This document shows positions 2,033 to 45,992 of a DNA stretch of 62,751 bases, piece by piece. The position numbers and the translations under genes are program-made. This stretch comes from an uncultured Pseudomonadales bacterium (GTDB lineage Bacteria > Patescibacteriota > Microgenomatia > UBA1400 > UBA1396): contig CAYUUK010000008.1 in assembly GCA_964447905.1 (NCBI GenBank), positions 1 to 62,751 of the forward strand, in the 5' to 3' direction. The notes under the pieces are model-generated. The model was not told where the DNA came from and did no database searches. It saw only the letters and a program-made list of their open reading frames with translations. How positions within the stretch are numbered: position 1 is the first letter of the stretch; the number at the start of each line of letters is the position of its first letter.

Positions 2033-2063
2033 GACTATAGCAGTTTCCTAGTGTAAATCCATA

Positions 2064-4135: not shown

Positions 4136-7031
<2,896 letters not shown>

Positions 7032-7268
7032 TATGTTGATCAGTCCGTGTGAAACGGACGTCACAAGATCTTCGGTTTTTACTGAAGACCTAAAATACGC
7101 AATTGCTGATATTCAGATGATCGTAGCTGAGAAGAGCACTTACGGATTCTATTGATATCTCTACTTGTTCAGGGGTGATGATTCTGTCATCCTGATCATG
7201 TACATAAGAAAAGTTTCTTGTCCAGTCACCTGACTGGCCAACATACTTTTCACAGCGAAGACGCTTTT

Positions 7269-7388
7269 ATTCCGGTCTCTGGAGCGCAGTGGAACCAACT
7301 CTTTCCATTCCGAACAGAGTCTTGAAACGCTGCAGCGGTGAAGGTACTGCACGGGCAACTGTGTGGTAGAATAGCTCGAGGCCGGAAT
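7269..7388 (+). rRNA. rrf: 5S ribosomal RNA
   Basis: ~120 nt containing CCATTCCGAACAGAG...GAAACGC...GGTACTG. The terminal helix pairs ATTCCGG with CCGGAAT. It lies ~240 nt after the 23S end and is followed by a T-run. Confidence 0.85.
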
Positions 7389-20204: not shown

Positions 20205-20217
20205 CTGGCAGCAGGGT

Positions 20218-24776: not shown

Positions 24777-24787
24777 AGCGTATGTTC

Positions 24788-24816
24788 AGTATGGCGTTTT
24801 CCTGGGGTGGTGTCAA
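24788..24816 (-). promoter_or_regulatory. Sigma70-type promoter (TTGACA-17-CATACT) for the 358-aa gene
   Basis: On the minus strand there is a perfect TTGACA (24811-24816), a 17-nt spacer and CATACT (24788-24793). The ATG at 24776 lies only ~12 nt past the -10 box, implying a very short leader. Confidence 0.5.
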
Positions 24817-24835
24817 GATGGGCGCGTTCTTTGTT

Positions 24836-24919
24836 GGGGTTACCCTAAGCTTTATTTTCCTCAAGAGGGGGAAACCTAGGTTTCCCCCTCTTGAGGTAGT
24901 TGTTGAGTAGGGTAACCCC
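24836..24919. repeat. Intergenic palindromic repeat, copy D (full, opposite orientation)
   Basis: Perfect 38-nt palindrome at 24859-24896 (CCTCAAGAGGGGGAAACCTAGGTTTCCCCCTCTTGAGG). It is flanked by GGGGTTACCCT and, on the other side, GTAGTTGTTGAGTAGGGTAACCCC. It lies 16 nt past the stop of the giant gene. Confidence 0.85.
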
Positions 24920-24934
24920 AAACCGGTGGTTTTG

Positions 24935-27900
24935 TTAGTTGATAATCCACCAATTAAAGCTCACATCCTGGTCAACTTCCCCATCAAGCACCACTTCAAA
25001 GTAGCCTTCATTTTCGTCGGTGTCTGGGTTTTCGCCTGATTTTGATCCAATGTACAGAACGCGGTTTTTGGTAGAGCTGGTTGGTGTCAGGTAGATGAGG
25101 GAGTCGTTGGAGATGACGGTGTTGCGCACGACGAACTTGGTTTGGCCAGCGGCGATGGTGCCGGTGCCCGTGGTCGAGTTGGTGACTACTGAGGTAGAGA
25201 TTTCTTCATCGGTGGAAGTGGCTTCTTCAGCAGCAATTATGAGGCGGCGGAAGCGGGAAGAGCCGGAGGCGGAGAAGGCGGCGATTTCTTGGTTATCGAT
25301 GCCGCGCAGGACGAACTCGCTCGGGGTGATTTCGGACTGTGCTTCGCCGGAGTCAGTCAGGGAAGTGTTTAAGCTGTTGGAGCTGGCCAGTTGGACCTCA
25401 AGGTTGTTGTTGGGCAGTGGTTGCAGGAGAGAGGCGAAGAGTGATTGCTCGGCGATGGTTTCGCCGGCCAGGGTGGTGCGGCCGTTGATAATGACGTCTT
25501 CGTTGATTACCACGCCGCCGTTTTCAGAGATGACGACGGCATCGGCCATCAAGGAGAGGCGACCGGTGCCGGTCGATTGAATAGCGAATGTTTCGCTGCT
25601 GAAGGCGAGTTCGGTGCCCGAGAGACTGGTGCCATTTACCAGGAGGGCGCTGTTGAGAGAGAGGCCTTGGGCGGTGATGATGCCGTCAATGTTGACGTCC
25701 ATGGCAATGTTCCAGGCAGTGGATCCAGTGGCTGGGGCGGGTGTGGTAACAATGGTGCCAAAGTCGTCGTTGGAGGAGGGTTGGGTGGTGGCAGTTTCTT
25801 CCAGCAAGGACGCGATCAACGATTTTAGTTCGTCATTTTCTGGGACAGAAACTTCCGCTGAGCTGGTGGCTACCGCTTCTCGTTCGCGGGAGACGATGGT
25901 GCGCACGCGGTCTTCCAGACCGGAGATGCTGTCCGAAGAAATGGTGCCTTCGATGCGGTTGGCGTAGAGGGTGCCGGAGATGGAGGCATCGTTGCTGGCG
26001 AGTTGCTCGAAACGGGCGGACTGGGCGGTGAGGTTGCCGGAGATTGAGGCGTTGCCGGTGACGCTGAGGAGTTCTTGAACGGTGAGGAAGCGGTTCTCGA
26101 GGTCAGTGATGACGGCTTGTTTGGTGCGCAGTCCGGAGTTGTCGATGGTGGCGAGCTGCTCGCCGGCTTGGTTAAAGATAGCGAATTGGCCGGACTCGGA
26201 GGCGCCTTCTTGGCCGATTTCGACGATGACATCAGCGTTCTCGAGTGGAGTAATCATGTTGGTGCGCGTTACGGTGGCCGCCAGGTTGTCGGTCTCGATA
26301 TTTCGAGCAAATAATGTGTCCATTACTCTGGCGTTGGCCACGTTGAGCTCGCGTAGGGCGAGAGTACCAAGTGTTTTCAATCGAGCGAGGGCGGCATCCA
26401 TGACTGATTCGCGTTGGGCCAAAAGGGCGGATGGGCTCGCACTTTGTGTGGCAGTAGGAATGTCACCAAACTGGCCGAGAGCGACGTTCCAGTTGGCAGT
26501 GCCGGAGTCACGCAGGACGTCGACGATGTCGAAGGAGTAGGCACCGAGGCCGATGAGCTTGCCGGAGCCGTCGATGGCGAAGGTGCCGTCGCCGGCAGAA
26601 GCGGTTTGTGTTGTTGAGTCGTAAGATGGGTCGAAGTAGCTGGTGTTGACGAAGGCCATGATGGTACCGATGCCGTTGTCGAGTTCGGCGTAGGCGTTTT
26701 TCTCGAGTTCGCTGAGGATACCGGAGGCGGTGGCGTTGTCGCTGTTGACGTCGACAGCAGCGGAGCCCGAGGCGGTCAGGGCGGTGATGTCACCGCTCAA
26801 GTCGACGTTGGCGTCGGCGAGGCCAATGATGGTGCTCGTGCCATCGAAGCGCTCCATGGCTTTTCCGATGGTGGGACCGGCGGAAATGGCTTTTACGGCT
26901 ACACCTGGAGTGCTGCCGGTGGTGAGGTAGTCGCCTGGTTCGATTGGACCGTTTTCGAGAGAGACTTTTACGGGAACACGACCAGCCAAAGCCACTTGCA
27001 CGGCAGTGGCGGCGCCGCGGGTAAGTTGTGGGTCACTGTCGTAGCCAGGAGTAAGACCACTGGCATCACCGAGAGTGATGGCTGGTTGCGTGGCGATGAT
27101 ACCGATAGCTTTGGAGTCTTGCGGACGGTCTGAGCGGACAACTTTTATGTCGCCACTGGGGTCGACGCTGACAATTTCACCGGCTTGTAGAGAGGTATCA
27201 TCCGTGCCGTACCACTCAGCTAAGTCAGCACCGCCTGAGAAGTTACCTTCCGGCAATGCTTGGTTGTAGCTACCAATGGACATCCAGGTGAAACAGGTGA
27301 CGGTGTTGGCAATACTCTCGACTGCGGTAAATTTGTTTTCGCGGATGCTCGAGGCATAGAGGTCATTGCTGCCGGAAAGATCAGTACATTGGCTCAAGGT
27401 GGTGGGGTTGCGGAGCGTTGAATTGAGTGAGCCCGCTACCGAGAGGAAAACGAGCGGCGGCGTGTTGTAAGAAATACCATAATGCACTTCTTTGGATGTG
27501 TCGTTAGATTCGAGCCAGCTCCAGCCTTTGCGGATGACTTGGGCCGTGGTGTCTTGGCTGTCGGTGCCGTTGTCGTCTTGGGTGTAGTTGGAGAAGATGG
27601 TGCCGCCAATGGCTTGTTGGAGTTTGTCCACGGCCTCAAAGAGCGTGTCGCCAATTTTTTCGCGCCAGTAGAGTGTGCTGCTGGTGATTAAGAGGTTGTC
27701 TTGCGTGGTTTCGATGCCGACCACGTTGTCGTAGCCAGAGGTGGAATCCCAAGCCGTACCAGCGTCATCGGTTTTGCCGGCGGAGGCGTGGTAGTAGTCG
27801 GTGACGTAGGCAGACTGAGCATCTAAGCGGACGACACCGCCGCCGTTAGAGCCGTCATTCAAGCCTACGAAGATGTCATTGGCTTCGATGCGTAGGGCTT

Positions 27901-30900
27901 TGGTCTGGCTCGTCGAACCAGGTAAAGCCCATGGTCGGACGCGGAAGTCTGAGGTGCTGTCAGGGAATGTCGACCAGGCAGGGGCAACAGTGAGGGAATC
28001 AGTGTTATTTTTGGTGATCAAGCGAGTTTGGCCCGCGCCGGTGCCGCCGGTGATTTCCAAAATCAGACCGCTGTATTTGTTGGATTCCAGGCTGAGAGTG
28101 GTTTTCCCGATGGTGGTGCTGGAGGCAATATCGGCGTCGGAAGCGGAGAAGGAGTCGGTGCCAGAGCCTTGGCGGTATATGGCGGCGATTTGGTTGGGGG
28201 TGAGGTAGTCAAAATGTAAGAACATTTCATCCAAATCACCTTGGAACCAGTTGGTATTGCTCGGGCCGGAGGAACCAAATTGCAAGTTGCCACCGTCAGT
28301 AATGCTGCCGACAGAGAAGGTTTCGCGCAGTTCGCCGTTGATGTAGAGTTCACCCACATTGTTGCGTTCTTGGACCACGACGTGGTGCCAGGCATCGGAG
28401 GTGAGCTGGGTTTCAAATTTCTCAGTTGGACAGCCGCCGCCGTCGGTGCCAGGACACATGCCAAAAATGGGAGAATTGGAGTCGAAGAACCCAAGGTACC
28501 AGCCTTCATAACAGTTGGTGCCGGCACACGTGTTGTAGGTGCCCATAGCATGGCGAGTGCTGGCAGCTCCCGAATTATCTAAATAGACCCAGCCTCCCAC
28601 TGCCCAGTCAGTGTTTCCGAGATTGCCCACCAAGTTGTCGTTGACGGCTACGTAGTCGCCTTGGCTGGAGTCAAAGGACATGGCGCGACCCACAGCACCG
28701 CTGCTGATTGGGGTAGGATTGCCGTCAGCGTCGCCAAGGTTGAGGGTGTAACTGGGGGCACTTTCCAAACCGTAGTCGTTGAGTTTGCCTTCGCTGTCAG
28801 ATGTTTCCATGGGGTAGTAGTGACTGAGACCGAACTGGTTGATCACGTTGTGTGTGGTGTTGATACTGCCGCTCAATCCAACCAGGTTCAAAAAATCGGG
28901 ATCGGGGGTGGTGGCTAAGTTGATAATATCGGTGCCGTAGCGATGCCCGAAGTAGACTTTGCCGCCGTCGACTTCCATGGCGTACTTGGTGTTGTACTCG
29001 GGGATACCGGTGAGGGCGGGGTAGTTTAAGACGTCGGTGCCGTCGTACATGCCAGGGGTGGAGTCGAGAGAAACATCGGCGGTAGCGTCGACTTCTTTGG
29101 ATTTTCCGTAGATATCGTCTGGCTCGACTTCGGAGTTGTCCTGGTTCCAGATGTTGTAGAAGATGTCGACGGTGCCTTTGCTGGCATTGGCGCCTACCAA
29201 AGTGCTGCCGGAGAAGCGCACGTTTTGGTAACGGCCACCGACAAAGGAGAGTTCGTCAATGCGCAGCTGAGTGCCACCATTATTAGCGTCGGCAGTGAAG
29301 CGATAGTATTGGTACTCGTTGCTGTTGCCGAAGTGGATGGACTGGATTTGACCCATGCCGTCGCGCGTGGCCAGTTCGGTCCAGGTGAGGCGGTCGTTAC
29401 TGCCCGAGACGGTGATGTCGCGGGGGCCGGAGACGTCAGAGGCAGTACTAGCCTGCCAGCGCACGCCAGAGACGGTTTGGGCGGAGCCGTAGGGGAAGTG
29501 GCGCTCCACGTAGAAGCCATCACCATTGTTTTCTGCTTGGGAGTTGTAGGCACTGTGGTCACCGCGGTCGATGGTGAAGAATGCTGAGTTAGCAGAGTCG
29601 CCGTTGACGGAGTTGGAGAACATGCGTTCGCTGTCACCGAGGAGCCAGAAGCCTTTGGTCTCGACGTAGGAGTCGCCACCGTTGCGCGAGATATTGAGGC
29701 GGTAGTAGCGGTACGCAGTCGAGTTACTGAAGGTGTATGTAAGGATATCTTCCGTGTCGGAGAAAGGATTACCGGTATCGGCTTTGCTGTGGAGGGAGGT
29801 CCAGTTGCTGCCGTCGTTACTGCCTTCGAGAGCCCAGGCCTCTATTTGGCGGCCACTGGTGACGTATCCTTTTACAGCGTAGCTATTGAATATTCGTGGT
29901 GAGGTGGCGCCGTAGTCGTAGCGGATCCATTCGCTACAGTTGCCGCTACTACAGCTAGAGGTCGAAAGCCAGCGGTAGTTACCGGAGGCTTGGGCATCGT
30001 CAAAAATGACGTTAGTTTCGTCAGCAGTCGTGTCGTTGTTGCTGGAGCTCGCAGTAATTACTGGCGCTCCCATCTGGAACTCGCTGACGTCAAGGAGGGC
30101 GCTGTCGCCGCCGTTTGCCGAAACATCGAGTCGATAGTGCTGATAGGCCGTGCTATTACTGAAGGTGTAAGACTTGTAAACGTATTTGTCAAAAGTCTGG
30201 CTGGAGCGGGTGTCGAGCGAGGTCCAGGTAACGGCGTCGTTACTGCCGTAGAGGGTCCAGTCAGCAGGGTAGGAGTTAGCGTCATTAGAGCGGACGAGGC
30301 CGTACTGGGTCATAACGAGTGGCTCTGGGTAGCTTACTTGCACCCAGCCGTTCGTGTCACCATTGGCGGTGGTGTGGAACTCACCGTTGTTGTTGGTGCG
30401 GCGCCAGTCGTTAATGTGGCGGGTGCTGATGGTGGTGGTATTTCGCGCAGAGCTGGCACGTGGTTTGGCCTTCATGAACTCGCTGCCGTAGAGTTTGACG
30501 GCTGATTTTTCGTGTTTGGTCTGCAGGAACATGTCGGCAATCCAAACTTGGTCGGCACTGGCACTTACTGGGTCCGTGACCACTATGCGGTAGTAGGAGT
30601 AGGCTGTGCCGCTAGAGTTGATTTCACCCCAGCGCACGGTGGGGAGTGCGCCCAAGTCGCGGTATTGGGCGTTGGTTACCGTTTCTAAGGTGGTCCAGGA
30701 GCTGCCGTTGTTGCTGGCTTGGAAGGTCCAGTCCTCTGGAGCTTCATTGTTGGAGGTATTGTCAGAAGGGCGCACTCCGTAGCGTTGAATGGCTTTGGCG
30801 CTGGCGAACTGGTAGGTCACGGTGAGAGTGTTGTTGGCAGCGTCGGAGCGGACGTAGGTGGTTTCATCGAAGTCGAAAGCGTTGACGGCGTCATCGCTGC

Positions 30901-33900
30901 CGGAACTGCCGTCGTCGGTGATGGTGTCACCGGAGTTGAGCGCGCTGGCGGCGTGGCGGTATTCGTACTGGATAGGTTGGTCGAGGTTGACTACATTGAG
31001 ACCACCGTCGGTGGCTACACCGAGGTGGCGTTGGTTGGCGTGATAGGTGATGTCGAGGTCGTTGACTTTGTTGTTGGTGAGGGCAAAGCGGGTGTGGTTG
31101 TTTTCGCTGAAGACGTTGTCGCCGCTGTTGCGCTCTGAAATAGTTTGGGTGCTTTCGGAGCGGTCGGTGGTGTCCCAGTAGGCTACGGTGTCGGTGGTGA
31201 AGTCGAGTTCGTAGATGCCGGTTTCTGAGGAAGTACCGTTGGTTCCTACGTAAATGTGACCGTCACGAGCCGTGACTGAGCTGATGTCGTTGTTACTGGT
31301 GTCGCCGAGGGCATTGCCGCTGCCTTGTTCGAACTTCATCCAGAGCGAGTTGGTCGAGATGTCGAAAATGTAGAGTTCGTCGGCGGTCCAGACGATGTTG
31401 GCCTTGGTGGGGAAGTGGTTGTTGCCGCAGCGGTCGTCAGAGGCGAGCGTACAGCTTTTTCCGATACCGTCGTCTTTTCTTTCACGGTACCAGCTGAGGG
31501 TTTTGGCCACGGAGGATTTGCGCCAGTTGCCACCGTCGGAGTCGCGCGAAGTGTCGTAGAGGTAGGAGCCCAAAATGCTGGTGACGTCGGTGTTGATACG
31601 CGTTTCGTCTGGGGAGAAGATGTCGCCGTAGACCGTGAGCTTGACGTCGTTGTTTGTGCTGCTGCCGAACTCGACGTTTCCTTGCACGTCGACCTTCAAG
31701 AGTTGTTCTCCTTCGTTGGTGAGCTTGAAGACGTCACCACTGTTGGTGGCTTCTACATGGAGTGTGGCCTCGGTGTCGACAATGCCGATGCCCACGTCAT
31801 GACCGTATTGTTGTAAGATGAGCGGTCGGTGGTTACGCAGTTGGATGTCGTAAATGACTGGTGTGTCGGTACGGGTGCTGCCGGTGTCGAGGTAGGCAAG
31901 GACGCGCCAGTAGTAGCGGTCGTTATTCCAGTTGTTCATGGAGCTTCCTGCGGCCGCTACATCGGCAGTGATGTCGAGTTCTTCGCCTGAGTTGATGTCG
32001 TAGGTACCGCCGTCTTGGTAGTAGGTGCCGTCACCATCTGGGAGCGTAACCGGAGCGGCAAACGTGTTGTTGGTGGAAACCTGGATTTGGAATTTCGGAG
32101 CGATGTTGTCTGTGCCATCGAGGTCCCAAGTGGCTTTGAAGCGGTTCGGTTGGCCGAAGCTCAAGTCTTGGGTTTGGTGACCGGTGCCACTCATGATGTA
32201 GTTAGAAGTCCATGAACGCTCGCCAGGCAAGAAGGAAGCTGAACCGATCAGAGAAATATCTTGAACAGTCGGTGTGTCGCTAGTGGTGGCGCCGGTGTTG
32301 AGGATCGCGCGCACGCGCCAGTAGCGATGGGCGGTGTTGACTTGGCCGCTGACATCGAGTTCTACGCCATCATTAATATCGTAGGTACCGCCGTCTTGGT
32401 AGTAGGAGCCGCCGCCATTTGGATAAATGGTCTCTTCACCGGCGAAAGCACCAGTATTAGAGCCCAGAATTTGGAACTGTGGAGCGGTGTTGTCACTGCC
32501 ATCGAGCGTCCAGTTAATAAGGAGGCTGGCTGGAAGGAAGTTACCAACTGCGCCGGCATCGTACGAGGCAGATGTCCAGGTTTCATCGCCAGTAGCGAAG
32601 TCCACGGTTTCCTCGGAGCCTGGGCTAGCCACAGCTGGAGTTGGGTACGTAAATTGACGCATCTGGGCGTAACCGGTCATATTGTGTTCGCCGTCGGTAT
32701 CGATCTGCTGGTAGTAGGCGTAGACGGGTTTGTCACATTCAAGGCGCCAGTTATCGGTAACGTAGCTGGAAGAGTTTCCGGTGCCAAAGCCGAGGTGATT
32801 CACCGTTGTGTTTGATCCACCTGCGATGGTACCGATTGTTGATGCACCTTGGTGCACAGAACAAGTTGTGCTGGCGTATGGTGCGGCCACAGAAATGTAA
32901 TCGGCACCGTTCGGGGCACCCCAGACAGTACTTAGTTCTTTGCGCTCGTAGAACATGGTGGCTTCAATGCCGTCACTGTCACCATGTTGCTGGGCAGAGA
33001 TGGAGGCGTCTGTAGAAATGAGGCGGCTGGCGGGGGCAGCACCAAAATTTCCGCCGGAAGCTAAATCTGAGCTACTGGCAGAGAGGGAGAATGTTCGGTT
33101 GCCCCCAGCACTGTCGACTTCCGTGGTGTTGGAGGTTGAGGCCTCCGGACCAGCGTTGGTGGCCAAAGATTGGGAGCCAATACCGTAGAGGTACTCATTT
33201 TTGACCAGTGGGGTCAATGGCATGATGTCGTGGGCGCCGCCATCGTTGACAGCTAGGATAGGAATGTCGCTGGTTACTCGAATATTTGTATTGTTTGTGC
33301 TTGAAGTGTCGATACAGGTTCCACTTGAGGTCACTGATCCAGCGCGATCAACGGATCCGCCAGCATAAATGGTGTAGTTTGCCGTTCCCCAGGGACTTAC
33401 CATACAGATAGTGTTGATGCCATTATTGCGGTCGTAGAAGGCAAATTCTTTCGAGGCAAAACTGACTGGAACAATCGTATCAGTGAACGATACATCTGCA
33501 TCTGCTTGGAAGAGACCTTTCGCCGATACAGCCGAGCCTTCTGAGAAGAAGCCAGCCGTGAGGGAACCATTGTCGTACTGGTCGAGAGCCACGGTGCCGC
33601 TGCCAATAGTGATCGAGTTTCCATTCATCATGCTGAAAATGTCGATCGTGGATGCGGCCAAGGTGTCGTGGACAACATACCCAATAGTGCGCTCGGAATC
33701 GTAGGAGAAGGTATCAGCCATGCTGGATTCGCTCGTGGCGCTGCTGTTGCCGTAGAACATATAGATCGTTTCACCAGAGCTGGTAAAGGACTCGGTTTGT
33801 ACCCAAACTTCGGTGTCGGCGGTATTACAGGTGTTTTCTACGATGTAGTAGTTGAGTTCGTTGCCGGCGTCGTCACCGAAGCGCATGTCGGAACAGTCGC

Positions 33901-36900
33901 TTTCCATTTTGCTGCCCGAGATGAGCGAGGCGGTGTCGATGTTGTCGAGCAGAACTTGGTATTCTTGCAGGGTTTCGCCGCCAGTGTAGGTGATGTCGAT
34001 GGGTTGGCGGTAGTTCCAGTTGCGGTAGCTCCAATCGGTGTCAGTGGTAGCGAGGGCGAGTTCGTTGTTGGTGGAGGGGTCCTCAATGCCGGATGTTTTG
34101 GTGCCAGTTTCGAAGTCGGCGGTGCTGGTCCAGCTTTGGGTGAGAGAACCAGAGTTACCATAAAGTTTCAGCTCGTCATTGCGCGCCGGATCTTGCAGGC
34201 CAGTTTGGAAGATGGTGCCGCTGGCGTTGAAGTCGTAGGAGGTGGTCCAGATTTTGTTGAGGGAACCGGTGTTTTGCGTGTAGATTTCGCCAGATTGCTC
34301 GCCAATGGAGTAGACCTTGATGTTGTCGGTGGCGTTCACGAGACCACTGAAGCGGGTTTCGTCAAAGTCCTCATCGAGCGTGATGATGACATCACCCTGG
34401 TATTCTTTGTAAATATCACCACCCTGTACGCGCAAGTCAGGCTCTACGTAGAGGTAGTCACCAGTAGAAGTGATCTGCAGATTTGCGTTACCGGTAATTG
34501 GTTCGGTGCCTTCGTAAATACGGTGCTTTTGTTCGCCGAGCCAGATAGATCCATCGGCTTGACTCAATCGGATCTTGGCAGAGTCCGTAGAGTAGCCACC
34601 GATGAGGATGTCAGGAGTAATGTTGCTCGGGCGGATGACGCCATCAGCGGTATCGAGATACCAGATGCTGCCAGAAGAAGAACTCAGGGCTCCCCACTGC
34701 GTGCCGTCAAAAAGGTACATTTGGTTGTCGCTGGTGTTGAAGTAGAGAGAACCGGCGCCGATAGCAGTCGGGTCGGTGCCAAAGTTCCCAATGCGCAGCT
34801 GATCTTGGGTGACGACAGAGCTCGAAAAAGTAGCGGCGCGAGCGGTGATATCGCCAGTGTCAGCGTTGACGTGGAACTTAGCCGAGGCGGTGCTGCCACC
34901 ACCGATAAGGAGATCAGCCTCAAGGTTTCTGGGGTAAATAGTGGTATCAGCTTCGTTAAAGTACCAGTTCGTGGCGCCTTCGCCAGTAAGTTCCAACCAG
35001 TTGGAGCCGTCAAAGTATTTCACTACATTGTTGCTGGAGTCATAGGCCAGAGCACCGGAACCAATGCCTGTGCCTGGGTCACCAGCGTAGTTACCGAGCT
35101 GGAGTTGTTGGGAGAGCGAGATGTCGCCGTCAACATAGAACTCAATATCGGCTGGCAATGTGTCACCGTCACTATCAATGACGATGCCGACTGCCGAAAC
35201 AAACTGGTCTTCTGTCTTTAAGACGTTGGCGGCTGGTCGGAAGAGATTGGTGTCATTTCCCCAGGTAATACCGTTTTCTTGATCGGTGTTTCCCGCATCT
35301 TGGTAGAGTGCCAAACGGGAAGTTGGTGCAGTACTGCTGCCGATGCGGAGGAAGCCTTGCTCATCGAGCAACATAAAGGTGTTGTCGTTATTGCGGAAGT
35401 GGATATCGCCACCGTTGGGGGTGTTGAGGTAGGTGTCGGAGCCGTTTCCTGCCAAGGAGTAGTTTCCGCTTGTCAGGGTGCTGGCAAACCCGATGCGGCC
35501 GATAGCAGAGTTGCTGCCCGCGTCACCCATCAGGATTTGGGCTCCGCCTGATCCGTCAACTACATGGAACTTAGCACCTGGTGCTGCCGTGCCCACACCA
35601 ATAAAGGTATTGCTGGTGTCGAAGCTCAAGAGATCTGAACCGAAGTTGAGCGCATCCACACCACTCGTGAGGGAAACATCCACGCTCTGAGTAGAGAGGT
35701 CAATAAGAGGGCTGTCAATGTCGATGGCAGTGCTGCCAACTAATTGAATTGTCGGTTCGGTGAGTGCGAGCGTGTTGTCAACGGTGTTGTCGATAGTAGC
35801 GCCGTAAGCCAGTGTGAGCAGGCCATTTGCACCTACGGTGAATCGGGTCGTGCCAGAAGATGAGGCCGTTAAAATGTCATTTCCAAAGGTGTCATTCAGC
35901 GTGACTAAAGCATTGCCGCCAAAGCCGCCTTCTACATTCAAGAGTGACGCCGGCGAGGTAGTACCGATACCCACGTTCCCGTTTTCATCAATGACCATAC
36001 GACCATTGAGAATATCGAGGCTGGTAAAGCCAGAAGCAGCCAGTAAGAGGTCCTCATCACTGCCGCCGGTAGAACCAAAGAGGTACTCAGAGGCACTCAA
36101 GCGGTACGCGGTGCTGCCGGAAATGGTGCCGGCCACCGAAAGCTCGTAGTTTGGTGCGGCGGTGCCGATGCCGACTCGACCGTTGCTCGTGTCGAGGCTC
36201 ATGAGGTCGGAACCAAAATTCAAGGCGTCAATGCTGGTGGCTAGGGAAACATCTACGTTTTGCGTGGAAAGGTCGAGAGTGGCGGAGTCAATGTCGAAGG
36301 CAGTTGAAGCGGTGAGTTGTAAGGTATCTGTGGTTTGGTTGTTGAGAACTACACCGTTGGCGAGAGTGACGTCGCCAGTAACGGCGTTGACGTGGAACTT
36401 GGCTGAAGCGGTGGACGAGCCGCCAACAGCAATGGACTCATAGGATTGGTTGGGCGAGAGCAGGCCGTTGCTGTTACGACTCCAGTACGAGTCACCACCA
36501 CCGCCACCACTGCCAATGTTGTTGTAGAGGTAGTTGAGCGCGTCGATGATGCCTCGGTCAGCGGCGTCAAACAGGTCGAGGTTCGTGTCGGTCAGGGAAA
36601 GCGGAATGGCGTAATCGACATTGCCGTCTTGCAGGCTCAAAGTGCCGGCGGAGTTGAGAGCGATGTTGCCAGATGTGGTGGTGGTAATGTCGAGGTTGCC
36701 GCCGGCGCGCGTGAGGGTTCCTCCAGAGAGGTTCAGTGTTCCGGCAATATCGCTGGTACCGACTCCGTTAATGTCGAGTACCCCGGCGCCGGTAATGTTG
36801 TTCAAGTTTCCATTTCCAGAGGCGTCAACGTAGTAGGTAGTTCCACCGCCCACACTAATACCATTGCTGAACTGCACGTAGTTGGCCAATCCCGTAAGCG

Positions 36901-39900
36901 TGTTGCTGTTCGGAAGGGTGAGGGTGCCGTAGGTGGTGATATTCTGGGAGCCGTCAAAGGTAATTGCCACACCTGTGCTGTCGTAGATGTCGTTCCCCAA
37001 GACTTGCAGATCATCATCAATGGAAAGTGTGCCGTCGCTCAGATCAGCCAAGGAGCCCTCAATGAACAAATTTCCTGTTCCATCCAGGTTGGCAACAGTA
37101 GTTCCAGAGGCGGAAGCTGTGAGTATATTTTGTGTTCCTCTTTCATCTATGACCAGGGCGGCGTTGCCAGCACCACCGCGAATGTTCACCATGCCGCCAG
37201 CGGCAGAGGTTTGGCCAATGGTGACTCTGTCTGGAATAATGAAGTCGTCGCCAGTAATGTCGAGGAAGAGGTCGGTGGAGAAGTTGGAGAAGGTGGCAAA
37301 GCCAGCGCCGCCGTCTCTGAGGGCGATGTCGGCGCCGTCGGCGTCGAGAATGATGTCACCGCTGCTGTCGATGGTGGCATTTCCTGTGGAGTTGAGTGTG
37401 AGCGTGCCTGTTGGGGTAATGCGCAAGTTACCATCTGATGTGATGTCGTCACCATTTACCGCGATGTCACCGCTAGTGGCGAGGTTTCCAGTGATATTTA
37501 CCTGACCACTCAAGAGCTCAATCAAGTCAGCATCGCTCGTGGAACCAACATATTGATTTACCGCTAAGTTTCCGGTGCTCGAGATGTAGGCAATGTCTGA
37601 TCCGCCCGAGTTACGCCAGCTGGAAAGATAGGCACTTTGCCCAGATACACCGCGGATTATCTGGCCGATTTCGGTATCAACCGTGGTGCGAACTTCGAGT
37701 TGTCCCCCTGGAGCTGTGGTGCCCATGCCAATGCCGATGTTTCCGCCTGAGGTAATTGCCAAAGCCGTACCAGAGCCGAACGTGCCGTTGTTTACATTGA
37801 GTTGAATACCGTTACCGGTGCCAGCTTGCAAAACGGCGAAGGCATTGTCGTATCCAACAAATCCTCGGTCGCCGGCAAAGGTAGTGTAGACGCTTGCGTC
37901 AGTGCCATCACCAACACTGATAGCGCCACCGTTGCCGCCTACGTCGAGTAAGGCGCCCGGGTTGGCGCTGCCGATTCCGAGATTACCGCTTTCGTCAATG
38001 ACTACCAGATCATTTCCAGAGGAATCCTGCCAGGAAGAGAGGTTAGCAGTTTGTCCGGCTGAACCTTGAACAGTCAGGGCTGAGCGGTGGGCGAGTTGAG
38101 ATGACAGCGTGGCACCGCGTGCCTGTAAGTAGCCGGCATCTTCCCCAATTCCAAAAATCTGAGCAACGGCAGAGCTGGTGGCGGTGCCACCAATGGCGAG
38201 ATCAAACGCAGAGTTCGCAGGAGAAAGGACATTTTGGTTTTCTTGCCAGAGCTGTATGGCTGGAGTGACCTCTTGGCCATTTACAAATAACTGTCCGCCG
38301 ACTTCGAGGATGTCTTCAATGTAGAGGTCATTGTCGGTGCTCGCCTGGGAAGCCGTGCCACCATCAGAAATTGCGTTGTAGGTTTGCGGAGAAATACCGC
38401 CAATTGCCAGGATGGTTGCCTGGAGGTTGTTGGTCACGGTGAGGTTGTCACCAATGGTGAAGCTGTCGTCGGTGGCCAGCGTGTCGGCAGCAGAACGGTA
38501 GATGTTGGTGTCGCCGCCAATGACAATACCGCCGCTTGAGCCTTGAGTGTCCAGGCTCAGTTGGCCGTTGTTATTGACTGTGAGGATTTGTCCGCCGGTG
38601 CCGTTGATTACCAGTGGGTTACTGCCTGCGTAGGTCGCGCTCAGCGTAGCGCCCGGAGCAGCTAGGTAGCCGTCAATTGTTGTGTTTCCCAAGGCATCGA
38701 CCACAAATTTCTCATCGAGCGAAGAGCCGCCAGCCAAAGAAATGAGGTTGTGGGTCGTGTTGTCGTTGCCGACTTCGCCGCGGATCAGGTTGCCGCTGGT
38801 GAGGTTGGAGTTAGAGATGTAGAGAGAGTCATTGGTGCTGGTAGAAGAGAGGACTTGTACTGAACCCTCACCATCTGGTTGGAAAGAAATGTCACCGTCA
38901 CTACCGGTCTCTGTTTGGAAGAGGAGCGATTCGCCTTGAATTAAAAACGCACCAGATGAAGCAATCAAGCTCGGGTTGTCGGCACCAATGATTATCTCGC
39001 CGAGTGCGTTAATAACCGGAATAGAGTTGATACCTCCATCCAGATCTACTGGGAATCCCTGCACGGTTTCCGAGTTTAAGGCGTACGGTACAGAGGCAAT
39101 TCGCTGACGAGGTGAGAGAATCTCACTCGAGACCTGAACTTCGAGCCAGACCTCGGTATTTTCGCTAAAGACGTTTTCAGTAATCTCATCTCCACAGCCA
39201 TCCACTGATTCACCCAGAAGAATAGAGAAGATACCGTCCTGATCAGGGTCAATAGAACAGGCGCCTGCGTCTGAAGAGTCCCAGAGTACGTTTCCACTTG
39301 TTTCGGCGTCGTAGAGGCGGAAGGTGAAGTTAATGGGGGTAGTAATTGGCGTCCGGCCTGAGTCAGTCAAGCGACCCTGGAAGTTGAGGATTCTCCCTGG
39401 TCGACTCGCTTCGCTCGGGTAGGCGAACTGTTGATCAACATTCACATAGAACTGTTGGTACCCAAACAGTCCAATCATCACCGAGAAGACAACCAAGATA
39501 CCTAAATGCAGGTAGCTAGAGATTTTCCAGGAGTGGTACTGGTCATACCAGCCAAGTAAGCTTCTCTGCACAGTGAGCGCACCAGCTGTCTGAGCAACCT
39601 GCTCTGATTTTCCACCAGATACAGACGAAGGCAGGTTGCCTGTTTTTCGTTTTTCAAACAGTGCTAACGGGGTGAAGGCATCGATAACCGCTTGTTTCTG
39701 TTTATCGAACCAAGTTTGGTAAGGATTCTCGGATATAAACTCCTCTTTGGCCGCCCATTGGCAGAAGCGCTTCAGACTGGCTTCTTTTCGTTGCACAGTA
39801 CTGCGCGTAAGGCCTTTGTTGCGGCGTTCGTTAGTCAGGTACTCGGCAATTTTGGGTTTTCGGCATATTTCGTCAAATGACTGCGCTGGATAGGCATCAC

Positions 39901-40354
39901 CGAAAAGTTTTGTGTCGGTAACATAATTTTTGACTGTGGTTTCCTTGCACCCGCTACTGCGGAGTGCTAATCCAAAGCGTTGCACAATCTTGCTCTTGGC
40001 AAGTTCGTGTTTTTGCGGGGAAAAACTAGTTTCGGGATGGATGAGAGTGGGCCAAGAAGGGTGTTTGTAGGCCAAAAAGTCATTAAAACGGCGCAATGAC
40101 GCAAAGTGTCGTTTGATGGTGCTCTCTGGTGAGCCCATGTTTTCCAGATGTGAGCGATAGCTTGCTAGAGCACGCCACTCAGTCGTCTCGGCAGAGGAAG
40201 CGGAAAAATGCTCGTGTGCCCACTCGGACCAGCGGTGCACATCGGAAACGTAGTTCTTAATCGTTTTTTTGGAAAGATTTTGATTGCCAAGCCACTGCCG
40301 AAATTCTTTCAGCGATTCTGCAAAGCTGTGCAGTGATGTTTTTGGGTTTGGCAT
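24935..40354 (-). CDS. Giant (5,139 aa) membrane-anchored, fibre/adhesin-like surface protein
   Basis: Uninterrupted 15,420-nt ORF with a GAGGA ribosome-binding site ~13 nt upstream. The architecture is a cytoplasmic N-terminal region, one TM helix and then ~4,800 aa of repeat-rich Gly/Ser/Thr/Asn/Asp-rich sequence with recognisable carbohydrate-binding-type modules (sub-features below). Confidence 0.9.
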   Translation of the reverse strand: MPNPKTSLHSFAESLKEFRQWLGNQNLSKKTIKNYVSDVHRWSEWAHEHFSASSAETTEWRALASYRSHLENMGSPESTIKRHFASLRRFNDFLAYKHPSWPTLIHPETSFSPQKHELAKSKIVQRFGLALRSSGCKETTVKNYVTDTKLFGDAYPAQSFDEICRKPKIAEYLTNERRNKGLTRSTVQRKEASLKRFCQWAAKEEFISENPYQTWFDKQKQAVIDAFTPLALFEKRKTGNLPSSVSGGKSEQVAQTAGALTVQRSLLGWYDQYHSWKISSYLHLGILVVFSVMIGLFGYQQFYVNVDQQFAYPSEASRPGRILNFQGRLTDSGRTPITTPINFTFRLYDAETSGNVLWDSSDAGACSIDPDQDGIFSILLGESVDGCGDEITENVFSENTEVWLEVQVSSEILSPRQRIASVPYALNSETVQGFPVDLDGGINSIPVINALGEIIIGADNPSLIASSGAFLIQGESLLFQTETGSDGDISFQPDGEGSVQVLSSTSTNDSLYISNSNLTSGNLIRGEVGNDNTTHNLISLAGGSSLDEKFVVDALGNTTIDGYLAAPGATLSATYAGSNPLVINGTGGQILTVNNNGQLSLDTQGSSGGIVIGGDTNIYRSAADTLATDDSFTIGDNLTVTNNLQATILAIGGISPQTYNAISDGGTASQASTDNDLYIEDILEVGGQLFVNGQEVTPAIQLWQENQNVLSPANSAFDLAIGGTATSSAVAQIFGIGEDAGYLQARGATLSSQLAHRSALTVQGSAGQTANLSSWQDSSGNDLVVIDESGNLGIGSANPGALLDVGGNGGAISVGDGTDASVYTTFAGDRGFVGYDNAFAVLQAGTGNGIQLNVNNGTFGSGTALAITSGGNIGIGMGTTAPGGQLEVRTTVDTEIGQIIRGVSGQSAYLSSWRNSGGSDIAYISSTGNLAVNQYVGSTSDADLIELLSGQVNITGNLATSGDIAVNGDDITSDGNLRITPTGTLTLNSTGNATIDSSGDIILDADGADIALRDGGAGFATFSNFSTDLFLDITGDDFIIPDRVTIGQTSAAGGMVNIRGGAGNAALVIDERGTQNILTASASGTTVANLDGTGNLFIEGSLADLSDGTLSIDDDLQVLGNDIYDSTGVAITFDGSQNITTYGTLTLPNSNTLTGLANYVQFSNGISVGGGTTYYVDASGNGNLNNITGAGVLDINGVGTSDIAGTLNLSGGTLTRAGGNLDITTTTSGNIALNSAGTLSLQDGNVDYAIPLSLTDTNLDLFDAADRGIIDALNYLYNNIGSGGGGGDSYWSRNSNGLLSPNQSYESIAVGGSSTASAKFHVNAVTGDVTLANGVVLNNQTTDTLQLTASTAFDIDSATLDLSTQNVDVSLATSIDALNFGSDLMSLDTSNGRVGIGTAAPNYELSVAGTISGSTAYRLSASEYLFGSTGGSDEDLLLAASGFTSLDILNGRMVIDENGNVGIGTTSPASLLNVEGGFGGNALVTLNDTFGNDILTASSSGTTRFTVGANGLLTLAYGATIDNTVDNTLALTEPTIQLVGSTAIDIDSPLIDLSTQSVDVSLTSGVDALNFGSDLLSFDTSNTFIGVGTAAPGAKFHVVDGSGGAQILMGDAGSNSAIGRIGFASTLTSGNYSLAGNGSDTYLNTPNGGDIHFRNNDNTFMLLDEQGFLRIGSSTAPTSRLALYQDAGNTDQENGITWGNDTNLFRPAANVLKTEDQFVSAVGIVIDSDGDTLPADIEFYVDGDISLSQQLQLGNYAGDPGTGIGSGALAYDSSNNVVKYFDGSNWLELTGEGATNWYFNEADTTIYPRNLEADLLIGGGSTASAKFHVNADTGDITARAATFSSSVVTQDQLRIGNFGTDPTAIGAGSLYFNTSDNQMYLFDGTQWGALSSSSGSIWYLDTADGVIRPSNITPDILIGGYSTDSAKIRLSQADGSIWLGEQKHRIYEGTEPITGNANLQITSTGDYLYVEPDLRVQGGDIYKEYQGDVIITLDEDFDETRFSGLVNATDNIKVYSIGEQSGEIYTQNTGSLNKIWTTSYDFNASGTIFQTGLQDPARNDELKLYGNSGSLTQSWTSTADFETGTKTSGIEDPSTNNELALATTDTDWSYRNWNYRQPIDITYTGGETLQEYQVLLDNIDTASLISGSKMESDCSDMRFGDDAGNELNYYIVENTCNTADTEVWVQTESFTSSGETIYMFYGNSSATSESSMADTFSYDSERTIGYVVHDTLAASTIDIFSMMNGNSITIGSGTVALDQYDNGSLTAGFFSEGSAVSAKGLFQADADVSFTDTIVPVSFASKEFAFYDRNNGINTICMVSPWGTANYTIYAGGSVDRAGSVTSSGTCIDTSSTNNTNIRVTSDIPILAVNDGGAHDIMPLTPLVKNEYLYGIGSQSLATNAGPEASTSNTTEVDSAGGNRTFSLSASSSDLASGGNFGAAPASRLISTDASISAQQHGDSDGIEATMFYERKELSTVWGAPNGADYISVAAPYASTTCSVHQGASTIGTIAGGSNTTVNHLGFGTGNSSSYVTDNWRLECDKPVYAYYQQIDTDGEHNMTGYAQMRQFTYPTPAVASPGSEETVDFATGDETWTSASYDAGAVGNFLPASLLINWTLDGSDNTAPQFQILGSNTGAFAGEETIYPNGGGSYYQDGGTYDINDGVELDVSGQVNTAHRYWRVRAILNTGATTSDTPTVQDISLIGSASFLPGERSWTSNYIMSGTGHQTQDLSFGQPNRFKATWDLDGTDNIAPKFQIQVSTNNTFAAPVTLPDGDGTYYQDGGTYDINSGEELDITADVAAAGSSMNNWNNDRYYWRVLAYLDTGSTRTDTPVIYDIQLRNHRPLILQQYGHDVGIGIVDTEATLHVEATNSGDVFKLTNEGEQLLKVDVQGNVEFGSSTNNDVKLTVYGDIFSPDETRINTDVTSILGSYLYDTSRDSDGGNWRKSSVAKTLSWYRERKDDGIGKSCTLASDDRCGNNHFPTKANIVWTADELYIFDISTNSLWMKFEQGSGNALGDTSNNDISSVTARDGHIYVGTNGTSSETGIYELDFTTDTVAYWDTTDRSESTQTISERNSGDNVFSENNHTRFALTNNKVNDLDITYHANQRHLGVATDGGLNVVNLDQPIQYEYRHAASALNSGDTITDDGSSGSDDAVNAFDFDETTYVRSDAANNTLTVTYQFASAKAIQRYGVRPSDNTSNNEAPEDWTFQASNNGSSWTTLETVTNAQYRDLGALPTVRWGEINSSGTAYSYYRIVVTDPVSASADQVWIADMFLQTKHEKSAVKLYGSEFMKAKPRASSARNTTTISTRHINDWRRTNNNGEFHTTANGDTNGWVQVSYPEPLVMTQYGLVRSNDANSYPADWTLYGSNDAVTWTSLDTRSSQTFDKYVYKSYTFSNSTAYQHYRLDVSANGGDSALLDVSEFQMGAPVITASSSNNDTTADETNVIFDDAQASGNYRWLSTSSCSSGNCSEWIRYDYGATSPRIFNSYAVKGYVTSGRQIEAWALEGSNDGSNWTSLHSKADTGNPFSDTEDILTYTFSNSTAYRYYRLNISRNGGDSYVETKGFWLLGDSERMFSNSVNGDSANSAFFTIDRGDHSAYNSQAENNGDGFYVERHFPYGSAQTVSGVRWQASTASDVSGPRDITVSGSNDRLTWTELATRDGMGQIQSIHFGNSNEYQYYRFTADANNGGTQLRIDELSFVGGRYQNVRFSGSTLVGANASKGTVDIFYNIWNQDNSEVEPDDIYGKSKEVDATADVSLDSTPGMYDGTDVLNYPALTGIPEYNTKYAMEVDGGKVYFGHRYGTDIINLATTPDPDFLNLVGLSGSINTTHNVINQFGLSHYYPMETSDSEGKLNDYGLESAPSYTLNLGDADGNPTPISSGAVGRAMSFDSSQGDYVAVNDNLVGNLGNTDWAVGGWVYLDNSGAASTRHAMGTYNTCAGTNCYEGWYLGFFDSNSPIFGMCPGTDGGGCPTEKFETQLTSDAWHHVVVQERNNVGELYINGELRETFSVGSITDGGNLQFGSSGPSNTNWFQGDLDEMFLHFDYLTPNQIAAIYRQGSGTDSFSASDADIASSTTIGKTTLSLESNKYSGLILEITGGTGAGQTRLITKNNTDSLTVAPAWSTFPDSTSDFRVRPWALPGSTSQTKALRIEANDIFVGLNDGSNGGGVVRLDAQSAYVTDYYHASAGKTDDAGTAWDSTSGYDNVVGIETTQDNLLITSSTLYWREKIGDTLFEAVDKLQQAIGGTIFSNYTQDDNGTDSQDTTAQVIRKGWSWLESNDTSKEVHYGISYNTPPLVFLSVAGSLNSTLRNPTTLSQCTDLSGSNDLYASSIRENKFTAVESIANTVTCFTWMSIGSYNQALPEGNFSGGADLAEWYGTDDTSLQAGEIVSVDPSGDIKVVRSDRPQDSKAIGIIATQPAITLGDASGLTPGYDSDPQLTRGAATAVQVALAGRVPVKVSLENGPIEPGDYLTTGSTPGVAVKAISAGPTIGKAMERFDGTSTIIGLADANVDLSGDITALTASGSAAVDVNSDNATASGILSELEKNAYAELDNGIGTIMAFVNTSYFDPSYDSTTQTASAGDGTFAIDGSGKLIGLGAYSFDIVDVLRDSGTANWNVALGQFGDIPTATQSASPSALLAQRESVMDAALARLKTLGTLALRELNVANARVMDTLFARNIETDNLAATVTRTNMITPLENADVIVEIGQEGASESGQFAIFNQAGEQLATIDNSGLRTKQAVITDLENRFLTVQELLSVTGNASISGNLTAQSARFEQLASNDASISGTLYANRIEGTISSDSISGLEDRVRTIVSREREAVATSSAEVSVPENDELKSLIASLLEETATTQPSSNDDFGTIVTTPAPATGSTAWNIAMDVNIDGIITAQGLSLNSALLVNGTSLSGTELAFSSETFAIQSTGTGRLSLMADAVVISENGGVVINEDVIINGRTTLAGETIAEQSLFASLLQPLPNNNLEVQLASSNSLNTSLTDSGEAQSEITPSEFVLRGIDNQEIAAFSASGSSRFRRLIIAAEEATSTDEEISTSVVTNSTTGTGTIAAGQTKFVVRNTVISNDSLIYLTPTSSTKNRVLYIGSKSGENPDTDENEGYFEVVLDGEVDQDVSFNWWIIN
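26840..27240 (-). other. Giant protein: GADLAEWY...GRVPVKV...GDYL segment resembling tail-fibre/neck-appendage autoproteolytic (Peptidase_G2/IMC-like) domains
   Basis: GADLAEWYGTDDTSLQAGEIVSV...SKAIGIIATQPAITLGD...VALAGRVPVKVSLENGPIEPGDYLTTGSTPGVAVKA. The assignment is from memory of this motif in phage-fibre-like proteins and has not been searched. Confidence 0.35.
28170..28690 (-). other. Giant protein: LamG / concanavalin-A-like lectin module
   Basis: MSFDSSQGDYVAV...DWAVGGWVYLD...WHHVVVQERNNVGELYINGEL...QFGSS...WFQGDLDEMFLHFDYLTPNQI is the typical LamG pattern (F-D-G...D-F-T-x-x-x-W-V...W-H-H-V-A...L-Y-V-D-G...F-x-G-x-I-D-E-V-R-I-Y). Confidence 0.6.
29240..30890 (-). other. Giant protein: four tandem discoidin (F5/8 type C)-like modules
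   Basis: Four ~130-aa units each contain a Y-G/A-(V/L) motif, then (D/E)W-(T/A)-(F/L)-x-(A/G)SN(D/N)G..(W/T)W(T)-x-L, and end with ..Y-x-(Y/H)YR(I/L/F)... Examples are PEDWTFQASNNGSSWTTL, PADWTLYGSNDAVTWTSL, IEAWALEGSNDGSNWTSL and RDITVSGSNDRLTWTEL. Confidence 0.6.
31835..32585 (-). other. Giant protein: two tandem ~125-aa repeats
   Basis: The first unit reads WTSASYDAG...INWTLDGSDNTAPQFQILGSN...YYQDGGTYDINDGVELD...YWRVRAILNTGATTSDTPTVQDISL. The second reads WTSNYIMSG...ATWDLDGTDNIAPKFQIQVST...YYQDGGTYDINSGEELD...YWRVLAYLDTGSTRTDTPVIYDIQL. Confidence 0.8.
33730..34020 (-). other. Giant protein: DUF2341-like module
   Basis: WNYRQPIDITYTGGETLQEYQVLL...CSDMRFGDDAGNELNYYIVE...TEVWVQT...GETIYMFYGN matches my recollection of the DUF2341 pattern (W-x-Y-R-x-P-I...D-I-R-F...Y-Y-I-E...W-V-K...I-Y-M-Y-Y-G-N). 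Confidence 0.55.
39455..39525 (-). other. Giant protein aa ~278-300: single transmembrane helix
   Basis: ISSYLHLGILVVFSVMIGLFGY is the only strongly hydrophobic segment in the protein. Confidence 0.7.
39719..40327 (-). other. Giant protein aa ~10-212: two tandem phage-integrase SAM-like (core-binding) domain look-alikes
   Basis: SLKEFRQWLGNQNLSKKTIKNYVSDVHRWSEWA...FASLRRFNDFL, then a second copy RFGLALRSSGCKETTVKNYVTDTKLF...EASLKRFCQWA. This follows the F-x2-(W/Y)L...S-x2-T-x3-Y pattern of XerC/D N-terminal domains. No catalytic R-K-H-R-H-Y domain follows. Confidence 0.5.
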
Positions 40355-43283: not shown

Positions 43284-43358
43284 GGCAGGCTCACCAAAAG
43301 TATAGCACGCACTTTTCTTGCTCCAAGCCCTGGTAGTGCATGCTACAATTGCGCTATC

Positions 43359-45923: not shown

Positions 45924-45992
45924 CAATTCATAATTTGCCAACTGTTTGCGTCTTGTGTAATTCCTGTGCGAATTGCGGTGTTTACTGCAAAC

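Follow-up and report, generated by a model that had tools for sequence, protein, structure and literature searches.

A candidate membrane-anchored, tail-fibre-like giant surface protein of Candidatus Woesebacteria

A single gene on the 62,751-bp chromosomal contig analysed here (the window, taken at its full length) encodes a protein of 5,139 amino acids (aa), the giant, which we propose with moderate confidence to be a membrane-anchored, tail-fibre-like surface fibre of Candidatus Woesebacteria that holds a partner cell or glycans. The nearest genome is a Candidatus Woesebacteria metagenome-assembled genome (MAG), in which the N-terminus of the giant is 80% identical and LeuRS 94%. Sequence comparison establishes the architecture, the homologies and the conservation pattern of the giant, and with them a family design of conserved chassis and variable cargo. 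The chassis consists of two domains resembling the core-binding domains of tyrosine recombinases, one transmembrane (TM) helix, a base domain resembling the N-domain of the mosaic adhesive trimer (MAT) fibres of Bdellovibrio, and a C-terminal module of ~765 aa; the variable cargo between the conserved ends comes to about 3,800 aa. The features of the gene are listed below in the order of translation.

24935..40354, minus strand: whole gene, 5,139 aa (~546 kDa), a single unbroken open reading frame (ORF)
40064..40324, minus strand: SAM-like (tyrosine-recombinase core-binding) domain 1, predicted cytoplasmic, aa ~11-97 (Pfam Phage_int_SAM_1, 8.7e-15)
39740..39997, minus strand: SAM-like domain 2, predicted cytoplasmic, aa ~120-205 (Pfam Phage_int_SAM_4, 1.9e-11)
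39455..39523, minus strand: single TM helix (signal-anchor), aa 278-300 (Kyte-Doolittle hydropathy)
39035..39421, minus strand: membrane-proximal beta domain 'ectoN', aa ~312-440 (covered by 117 of 120 homologues)
34505..38677, minus strand: fibre shaft, aa ~560-1950 (five capping-loop motifs and internal duplications)
33704..33898, minus strand: DUF2341 module, aa 2153-2217 (Pfam, 4.5e-13)
31844..32650, minus strand: two tandem repeats of ~130 aa, aa 2569-2837 (41% identity over 149 aa)
29255..30820, minus strand: four discoidin (F5/8 type C, CBM32-like) modules, aa ~3179-3700 (Pfam F5_F8_type_C, 1.5e-17)
28184..28663, minus strand: LamG / concanavalin-A-like module, aa 3898-4057 (Pfam Laminin_G_3, 6.1e-16)
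26837..27232, minus strand: Peptidase_G2-like beta domain, aa 4375-4506, starting GA|DLAEWY (family profile; predicted local distance difference test score, pLDDT, 80-90)
24938..26836, minus strand: distal fibre, conserved, aa 4507-5139 (108 of 120 homologues end with it)

The chassis and cargo design emerges from a homologue search with aa 1-5000 of the giant as query, which matched 138 proteins; the counts given here out of 120 cover the 120 that were listed. These homologues are 2,758-7,143 aa long, nearly all have N-terminal SAM-like Pfam domains, and their named sources are Woesebacteria, Collierbacteria, Pacebacteria, Shapirobacteria or 'Patescibacteria'. The stretch at aa ~120-560 is covered by 94-117 of them (aa 300-500 by 117) and the last ~740 aa by 51-108, with 108 terminating exactly with the C-module; aa 600-4300 are covered by only 2-40. 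Both conserved ends are shared with the giant, in one protein, by 82 of the homologues. A profile of the C-module, scored against 1.84 billion cluster representatives, matches 26,622 at E<=1e-3 and 4,601 at E<=1e-30. Head, base domain and C-module occur together in 46 of 120 further representatives, and the smallest complete members (P0282 and P0286, ~1,260 aa) consist of the chassis alone. Two family-specific N-terminal peptide patterns are found at 420 loci in GTDB species genomes; all credibly labelled loci among these belong to Patescibacteria, mostly Microgenomates, and we read the 'Pseudomonadales' labels on binned co-assemblies as placeholders.

The usual database label of the homologues is 'site-specific integrase/XerD', and it bears on the cytoplasmic head (aa 1-277), which is the most novel part of the giant. 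Two Phage_int_SAM matches in the head pass the Pfam gathering score (aa 23-95 and 124-205); the second domain is 29% identical to the first, and the two are modelled as four-helix domains with pLDDT 80-91. By predicted fold and by sequence profile, the head matches the core-binding domains of Xer, IntI, Cre and Tn1549 Int, the PDB fold matches of the head and C-module models all having E >= 0.007. The KNY.SD motif of the head is conserved in the family, and some relatives have one SAM-like domain instead of two, or a split head. The recombinase catalytic domain (PF00589, R-H-R-Y), on the other hand, has no Pfam match anywhere in the giant, which scores 54-57 bits against XerC/XerD models with cut-offs of about 330. 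With core-binding domains present twice and the catalytic domain absent, the giant cannot be a recombinase; that identity was therefore rejected, and the integrase/XerD label is an annotation error.

Two side observations concern the head. In about 11 GTDB relatives (L047, L049, L050, L059, L066, L068, L070, L073, L075, L079 and L082), SAM-like domain 1 forms a separate ORF of 160-200 aa that directly precedes the rest of the giant, with the split near locus position 10,000; this is either a MAG frameshift or a genuine split gene. The best PDB sequence match of the head profile is chain 14 of 9i5v (E 4e-7), 401 aa long and entered under the name 'ribosome-associated translation inhibitor RaiA', the N-terminus of which resembles an integrase SAM-like domain; this chain is either mislabelled or a hint of ribosome or RNA binding by such domains.

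The only 19-residue window with a Kyte-Doolittle mean above 1.6 starts at aa 278 (2.02; the runner-up reaches 1.39). This region is conserved as YLHLAILV.F...G.FGYQQF in the family alignment and is modelled as a long helix (aa 254-304). The head is basic (net charge +14, isoelectric point (pI) 9.6) and everything after the TM helix has a pI of 4.1, a difference that is consistent with an N-in/C-out topology; as far as sequence can tell, the giant fits a type-II membrane protein with an uncleaved TM anchor. An earlier reading of the window, made from the letters and their translations (the sequence-only reading), had claimed one uninterrupted 5,139-aa ORF, a DNA-binding-like cytoplasmic head and a lone TM helix at aa ~278-300. 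The ORF indeed begins with ATG and runs through 5,139 codons with no internal stop, and the other two points find support in the recombinase core-binding matches and in the hydropathy profile.

The membrane-proximal beta domain (ectoN) is the best conserved stretch of the giant, with the motifs LSFQGRLTD, PDQDGIF and YALN.ET.QG and many invariant columns, and is predicted as a beta domain with pLDDT 80-86. The NCBIfam model Bdello_MAT_N (NF053851) is matched by 14 of 15 family members (best 1.6e-9), with every score under the cut-off; in the giant, aa 319-387 align with model positions 13-79 (E 3.4e-5, 23.7 bits against a cut-off of 60). These matches are weak but consistent, and suggest a distant kinship between the base domain and the N-domain of the Bdellovibrio MAT fibres.

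The shaft beyond it carries the motif GxxGIG...P...LxV at aa 790, 871, 1392, 1459 and 1584, with a degenerate sixth copy at aa 2854. By regular expression there are five copies, compared with a mean of 0.008 in 500 shuffles, and the motif is present in 114 of the 120 homologues with a median of 7 copies. Aligned with the solved MAT fibre Bd3182 (8ojn), these GxVGIGT..P...L.V motifs of the giant coincide with both capping loops in that structure. A tiled self-comparison of the protein reveals two duplications in the shaft: aa 1296-1407 and 1481-1598 are 47% identical over 119 aa (the DIDSATLDLSTQ... pair), and aa 1750-1836 and 1852-1937, which carry the YF(D/N)... units, are 43% identical. Shaft regions have pLDDT below 50 in monomer predictions.

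The cargo modules are recognized at domain level, with DUF2341, F5_F8_type_C (in four stretches) and Laminin_G_3 all above the Pfam gathering score and with the two tandem repeats delimited at aa 2569-2700 and 2691-2837. The discoidin modules match a PHROG tail-protein family at 1e-40, and their closest solved relative is the corresponding domain of the GH92 mannosidase 7nsn (3e-21). The presence of lectin-type modules is thus confirmed, and glycan binding is predicted from the discoidin and LamG matches. For shaft and cargo alike the sequence-only reading proves accurate: its at least six GxGIGT-type motifs, described there as typical of tail fibres, are found as five plus the degenerate copy and are tied to such fibres by the Bd3182 alignment; its long internal duplications and Y(F/L)(D/N) units are those given above; and its DUF2341 module, two ~125-aa repeats, four discoidin modules and LamG module are all recovered.

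The C-terminal module of ~765 aa opens with GA|DLAEWY. GADLAEWY lies at aa 4375 and GRVPVKV at aa 4458, and GADLAEWY is followed by residues 4383-5139 (757 aa), in keeping with the ~750 previously claimed. A profile of this region, built from 29 family sequences, finds its best PDB match in gp12, the pre-neck appendage protein of phi29 (E 0.04). In this alignment, D4377 and E4380 fall on D692 and E695 of gp12, at its autocleavage site S691|D692; the solved C-terminal fragment of gp12 (3gqh) begins with D692, and mature gp12* ends at residue 691 (PMC6542822). Both D4377 and E4380 are invariant in all 29 family sequences, G4458-R4459 of GRVP are likewise invariant in the family, and we infer from this correspondence a candidate scissile bond at A4376|D4377. 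Pfam Peptidase_G2 (PF11962) is matched by 8 of the 29 members at E<=1, and homologues P0011 (25.1 bits) and P0077 (26.3 bits) score just above its cut-off of 25 at the aligned position. The best fold match of the C-module model in the viral database BFVD is a 'preneck appendage protein' (E 7e-9, template-modelling score 0.60 on target), one of 34 viral fold matches at E<=1e-3. The sequence-only reading had described GADLAEWY as typical of phage tail-fibre and neck-appendage proteins, which the phi29 profile match at the maturation site and the viral fold match support.

The link of the giant to Peptidase_G2 draws on its homologues, the weak profile match and the predicted structure. It emerged only through the family profile: the last 900 aa had no direct match in Pfam, NCBIfam or PHROG, and IMPDH, the lone PDB match of a single-sequence C-terminal search, was dismissed as chance. 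Peptidase_S74 (PF13884, SDxxxK) has no match in aa 4240-5139. In the model of aa 4362-5139, confidence is high only in the G2-like beta domain and over the last ~90 residues, where the distal fibre ends in an 88-aa beta-sandwich (aa ~5051-5139, ...VSFNWWIIN; pLDDT 80-88). The top PDB folds for the C-module model are the Pam1 tailspike (7eea) and the K1 lyase (7w1c), followed by capsid cement proteins. The tailspike and lyase matches span 82-91 aligned columns with a root-mean-square deviation of 2.3-3.6 and E >= 0.009, the aligned part of the model not being reported, and would seem from the model to belong to the terminal beta-sandwich.

Other processing modules occur elsewhere in the family. 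P0026 contains an intein/Hint module within the fibre (aa 764-1022), and P0008 (L005) has a Peptidase_S74 domain (aa ~5794-5846) that follows the G2-like domain and precedes the terminal ~490 aa, so that the family contains three kinds of self-processing module (G2-like, S74 and intein/Hint).

Surface exposure, trimerization, cleavage and adhesion are what we infer from these features. In the mechanism that we propose, three chains would intertwine as a beta-helical fibre, perhaps 100-250 nm long, which the base domain would fix at the cell envelope. The C-terminus would nucleate folding of the trimer as an intramolecular chaperone of the phi29-gp12 (Peptidase_G2) type, comparable to those of the K1F, T5 and MAT fibres, and would then cut A4376|D4377 using D4377 and E4380, with the lectin-bearing part remaining anchored to the cell. 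The lectin cargo may recognize glycans of the partner cell and set partner specificity, and may be exchanged between lineages through recombination. The basic head would either merely anchor the fibre or couple it to cytoplasmic nucleic acid. Giant proteins of Patescibacteria have already been suspected of host adhesion in passages of two genome papers (PMC11809585; PMC13059738).

The locus around the giant is conserved as well. The neighbouring features of the window that matter here are the following.

41807..42577, minus strand: partner gene, encoding a hypothetical protein of 256 aa, secreted and beta-rich; lies upstream of the giant in 72 of 87 loci
45966-46655, plus strand: comEA (SLBB + HHH), flanking the giant locus
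19563-21299, plus strand: three pilin-like genes with N-terminal methylation motifs, flanking the giant locus
24859..24896, no strand assigned: hairpin, 17-bp perfect palindrome, ~40 nucleotides (nt) past the giant's stop codon
23700-24776, minus strand: 358-aa membrane protein, just downstream of the giant, ending ...VTLFWRIVE

In the closest orthologues, P0001 and P0003, the giant is preceded by comEC, comEA (not called in the P0003 locus), leuS, genes of ~230 and ~256 aa and a divergent gene of ~265 aa, and is followed by a ~358-aa membrane protein, a TPR membrane protein and two or three pilin-like genes (N_methyl). Orthologues with conserved gene order, a point left for checking by the sequence-only reading, thus exist. 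The window itself has leuS, comEA and the 256-aa partner gene upstream of the giant, and the contig also carries 23S and 5S rRNA, three tRNA genes and the three pilin-like genes. Three more distant relatives (down to ~30% identity, 3,083-6,346 aa) all lie near comEA, and two have leuS and comEC close by as well; downstream of two of the three come additional large proteins with LamG, DUF2341 or Gly-rich sequence. Across 87 related loci, many of which are too short to show further neighbours, the 256-aa partner is upstream in 72, leuS in 44 and comEA (within 10 kb) in 31. This partner, the most constant neighbour of the giant, has an N-terminal hydrophobic segment and no Pfam domain, and its homologues are all unnamed hypotheticals. 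The 17-bp hairpin after the giant is nested in a longer palindrome (24834-24920) and is a likely transcription stop, as judged from its sequence; together with a sigma-70-like site at 24816->24788 (minus strand) ahead of the 358-aa gene, it suggests that the giant may be transcribed alone.

Several further observations concern the locus. In the orthologous loci L001-L005, comEC is found on the far side of comEA, and L004 (P0005) also has dprA close to the giant. The C-terminus of the 358-aa protein aligns end to end with the terminal 88-aa domain of the giant at only 5.4 bits, a match that we did not use and that may reflect a shared domain or chance. A 477-aa ORF (42582-44015, minus strand) overlaps leuS (43359-45923, plus strand) on the opposite strand; the genuine gene within it is probably its last ~230 aa, a multi-TM protein as called in orthologous loci. 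The 23S and 5S rRNA genes occupy 4135-7387, and the 4 kb upstream of them (1-4134) hold low-GC ORFs and no 16S, which thus appears to be unlinked from the 23S-5S pair.

Several points weigh against the fibre as we propose it. Nothing explains why an adhesin would need two cytoplasmic DNA-binding-like domains. The giant's own GADLAEWY segment has no Pfam match even at E<=10, the phi29 profile-to-PDB match is weak at its E of 0.04, and the models, each of a single chain, average a pLDDT of 53 and 66. The predicted C fragment, at 763 aa, is ~5 times the size of the phi29 gp12 fragment (163 aa) or the T5 pb1 chaperone (133 aa) and reads as a continuation of the fibre that closes with a tip domain, so that it may be kept and not shed. 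This last point opens a reading to which we give an appreciable chance, if clearly the lesser one: the same fibre, in which the G2-like domain is a non-cleaving structural or trimerization knot and the distal ~630 aa are the working tip, binding a conserved target or an assembly partner, with the lectin cargo decorating the shaft. Besides the size of the distal part, the fibre-like units and the confidently modelled terminal beta-sandwich past the G2-like domain speak for such a tip, as do the tailspike and capsule-lyase folds, with the reservation on the aligned region given above. The C-module is moreover the most conserved part in the family and always stands at the very end, and the C-terminal auto-chaperone of the P22 tailspike stays uncleaved (PMC4690869). 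The extra Peptidase_S74 downstream of the G2-like domain in P0008 also favours a retained tip, since one would hardly expect a further processing module in a stretch that is shed whole at the G2 site. What keeps us with a cleaving C-terminus is the invariant D..E pair exactly at the phi29 cleavage position, and the division of labour in phage and MAT fibres, where assembly falls to the conserved ends and the tips are formed by the variable parts (PMC10769870).

The head, which neither version of the fibre accounts for, could also make the giant a transmembrane coupler, in which it binds DNA, either the chromosome or incoming DNA, and links contact to regulation or uptake, in the manner of ToxR-type membrane-bound regulators or together with the neighbouring competence genes (ComEA/ComEC, pilus). 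This would be compatible with the fibre that we propose, and we consider it improbable but worth keeping in view. It is suggested by the basic, family-wide conserved head with its KNY.SD motif and its matches to DNA-binding core-binding domains, by the recurrence of comEA and leuS at the related loci with comEC, comEA and pilin genes around the closest orthologues and dprA near P0005, and by one family member that matches FliZ, a stand-alone core-binding-like DNA-binding regulator. DNA binding by the head is, however, a prediction from sequence and model, the synteny may simply reflect the conserved gene order of small genomes, cleavage at the predicted site, outside the cell, would leave the head in the membrane-bound part, and some relatives make do with one SAM-like domain or a split head. 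Two further readings are essentially excluded. A phage or prophage tail-fibre gene, or mobile-element cargo in the chromosome, would fit the 'integrase' label, the discoidin matches to PHROG tail proteins, the phage-like motifs and folds and a GC content above that of the flanks (0.52-0.57 at 24000-40000 compared with 0.37-0.53 in most of the window, with a strong strand skew). We rejected it as very unlikely: the catalytic domain is absent and the XerC/XerD scores are far below their cut-offs, an N-terminal TM anchor with a cytoplasmic head is unlike a virion protein, tblastn finds no match for the 763-aa C fragment among 50,697 phage genomes, and the chromosomal locus, with leuS, comEA, pilin and rRNA genes as neighbours, is conserved across hundreds of species. 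Because the neighbourhood of leuS, comEA, the partner and, where the flank extends far enough, comEC recurs down to ~30% identity, the sequence evidence identifies the giant as a vertically inherited cellular gene, and the high GC, which we do not read as foreign because the locus is conserved, probably reflects a Ser/Gly/Thr/Ala/Asp-rich composition. The least likely reading of all is an assembly chimera or pseudogene, with several genes fused through repeat collapse, as might be feared for a repetitive protein on a metagenome contig and as the sequence-only reading had cautioned. The internal repeats have diverged to 41-47% identity in protein, and the longest near-identical DNA repeat within the gene is 73 nt at 82% identity. 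The orthologue P0001 (5,069 aa), independently assembled from independent samples, is collinear with the giant from end to end at 60-74% identity, and P0002 is collinear at 85%. The absence of longer DNA repeats and the collinear orthologues therefore make misassembly or pseudogene status unlikely from the sequence, and the two conserved ends stand in one frame in the giant as they do in most of its listed relatives.

Patescibacteria, also known as the Candidate Phyla Radiation (CPR), account for a large part of bacterial diversity, and most are thought to live attached to other cells. To our knowledge, CPR attachment molecules are known only from a few cultured Saccharibacteria and Absconditabacteria. 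With thousands of clusters, a fixed chassis, swappable cargo and a fixed locus, the giant family is a candidate host-recognition molecule for Microgenomates. Cargo compared across genomes could predict partner specificity, and the conserved ends could serve as handles for antibodies, tags and profile searches. The family also exposes a systematic annotation error, its members being labelled site-specific integrase or XerD. Should the coupling of contact to DNA prove true, a membrane-spanning adhesin that is also a DNA-binding protein would have no described counterpart and would give direct access to the means by which CPR bacteria perceive their hosts and exploit them. The claim of the sequence-only reading that no described family has this combination holds for the searched literature, in which we found no description of the giant's architecture, cleavage motif or conserved locus; it does not hold for the databases, in which a very large family exists under the mistaken 'integrase' label.

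Genome papers have reported Patescibacteria proteins of more than 4,000 aa with DUF2341, LamG, FhaB or concanavalin-type modules that are presumed adhesins (PMC11809585, PMC13059738, PMC8080830), and domain reshuffling has been proposed for them (PMC11809585, PMC13059738). In the passages of these three papers that deal with such proteins, the head, C-module, cleavage motif and locus described here are not defined. With XerC/XerD the giant shares the N-terminal core-binding four-helix domain, in two copies, but not the catalytic domain. The phi29 gp12 protein (Peptidase_G2; 3GQ7, 3GQH, 3SUC, 6QZ9) reads ...WS|DFAEYF... where the giant reads ...GA|DLAEWY..., and a similar beta domain follows in both. 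However, gp12 is an 854-aa virion protein that releases a fragment of 163 aa, whereas the giant is a cellular membrane protein with its predicted site 763 aa from the end and a G2-like copy under the Pfam threshold. Fibres and spikes with S74 modules (K1F endosialidase, T5 pb1) and the eukaryotic membrane protein MYRF have capping loops too, and the C-terminal, trimerization-dependent self-processing that we propose for the giant follows their logic; S74 is absent from the giant by Pfam but PF13884 is present in some relatives (P0008 and others). MYRF joins such modules to a DNA-binding domain and a TM helix (PMC8326128), and there the processing domain shares one side of the membrane with the DNA-binding domain, which it releases; in the giant the two lie on opposite sides.

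The closest characterized system is the MAT fibre family of Bdellovibrio bacteriovorus (Caulton et al. 2024; structures 8OJN and 8ONB, among others; PMC10769870), with a capping-loop consensus of V-G-G/N-pi-x-x-P-x-x-x-L, a feature also reported beyond bacteria and phages in the S74-containing MyRF (PMC10769870). Like the giant as we propose it, MAT fibres are tail-fibre-like bacterial surface fibres with swappable adhesive modules and a capping-loop shaft; their conserved beta-rich base domain beside the export signal has a candidate counterpart in the giant, of weak but consistent homology, and many of them have a C-terminal chaperone/protease module where the giant has its G2-like C-module. 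The giant is nevertheless not a member of the MAT family. MAT fibres are ~1,000 aa long, have a cleaved signal peptide and come from a diderm predator, whereas the giant is ~5 times as long and has an uncleaved TM helix; they have no cytoplasmic domain where the giant has its 277-aa head of two core-binding-like domains; their site is of the S74 type (SDxxxK) and the predicted site of the giant is of the G2 type (DxxE), with a 763-aa C-module; and the Bdello_MAT_N scores of the giant's family all lie below the NCBIfam cut-off. Phage-like fibres with autochaperones are already known on bacterial surfaces, and the giant is therefore no new principle. Rather, it would extend a phage-derived design of fibre and autochaperone, shown in bacteria so far for the Bdellovibrio MAT fibres, to monoderm, ultra-small bacteria.

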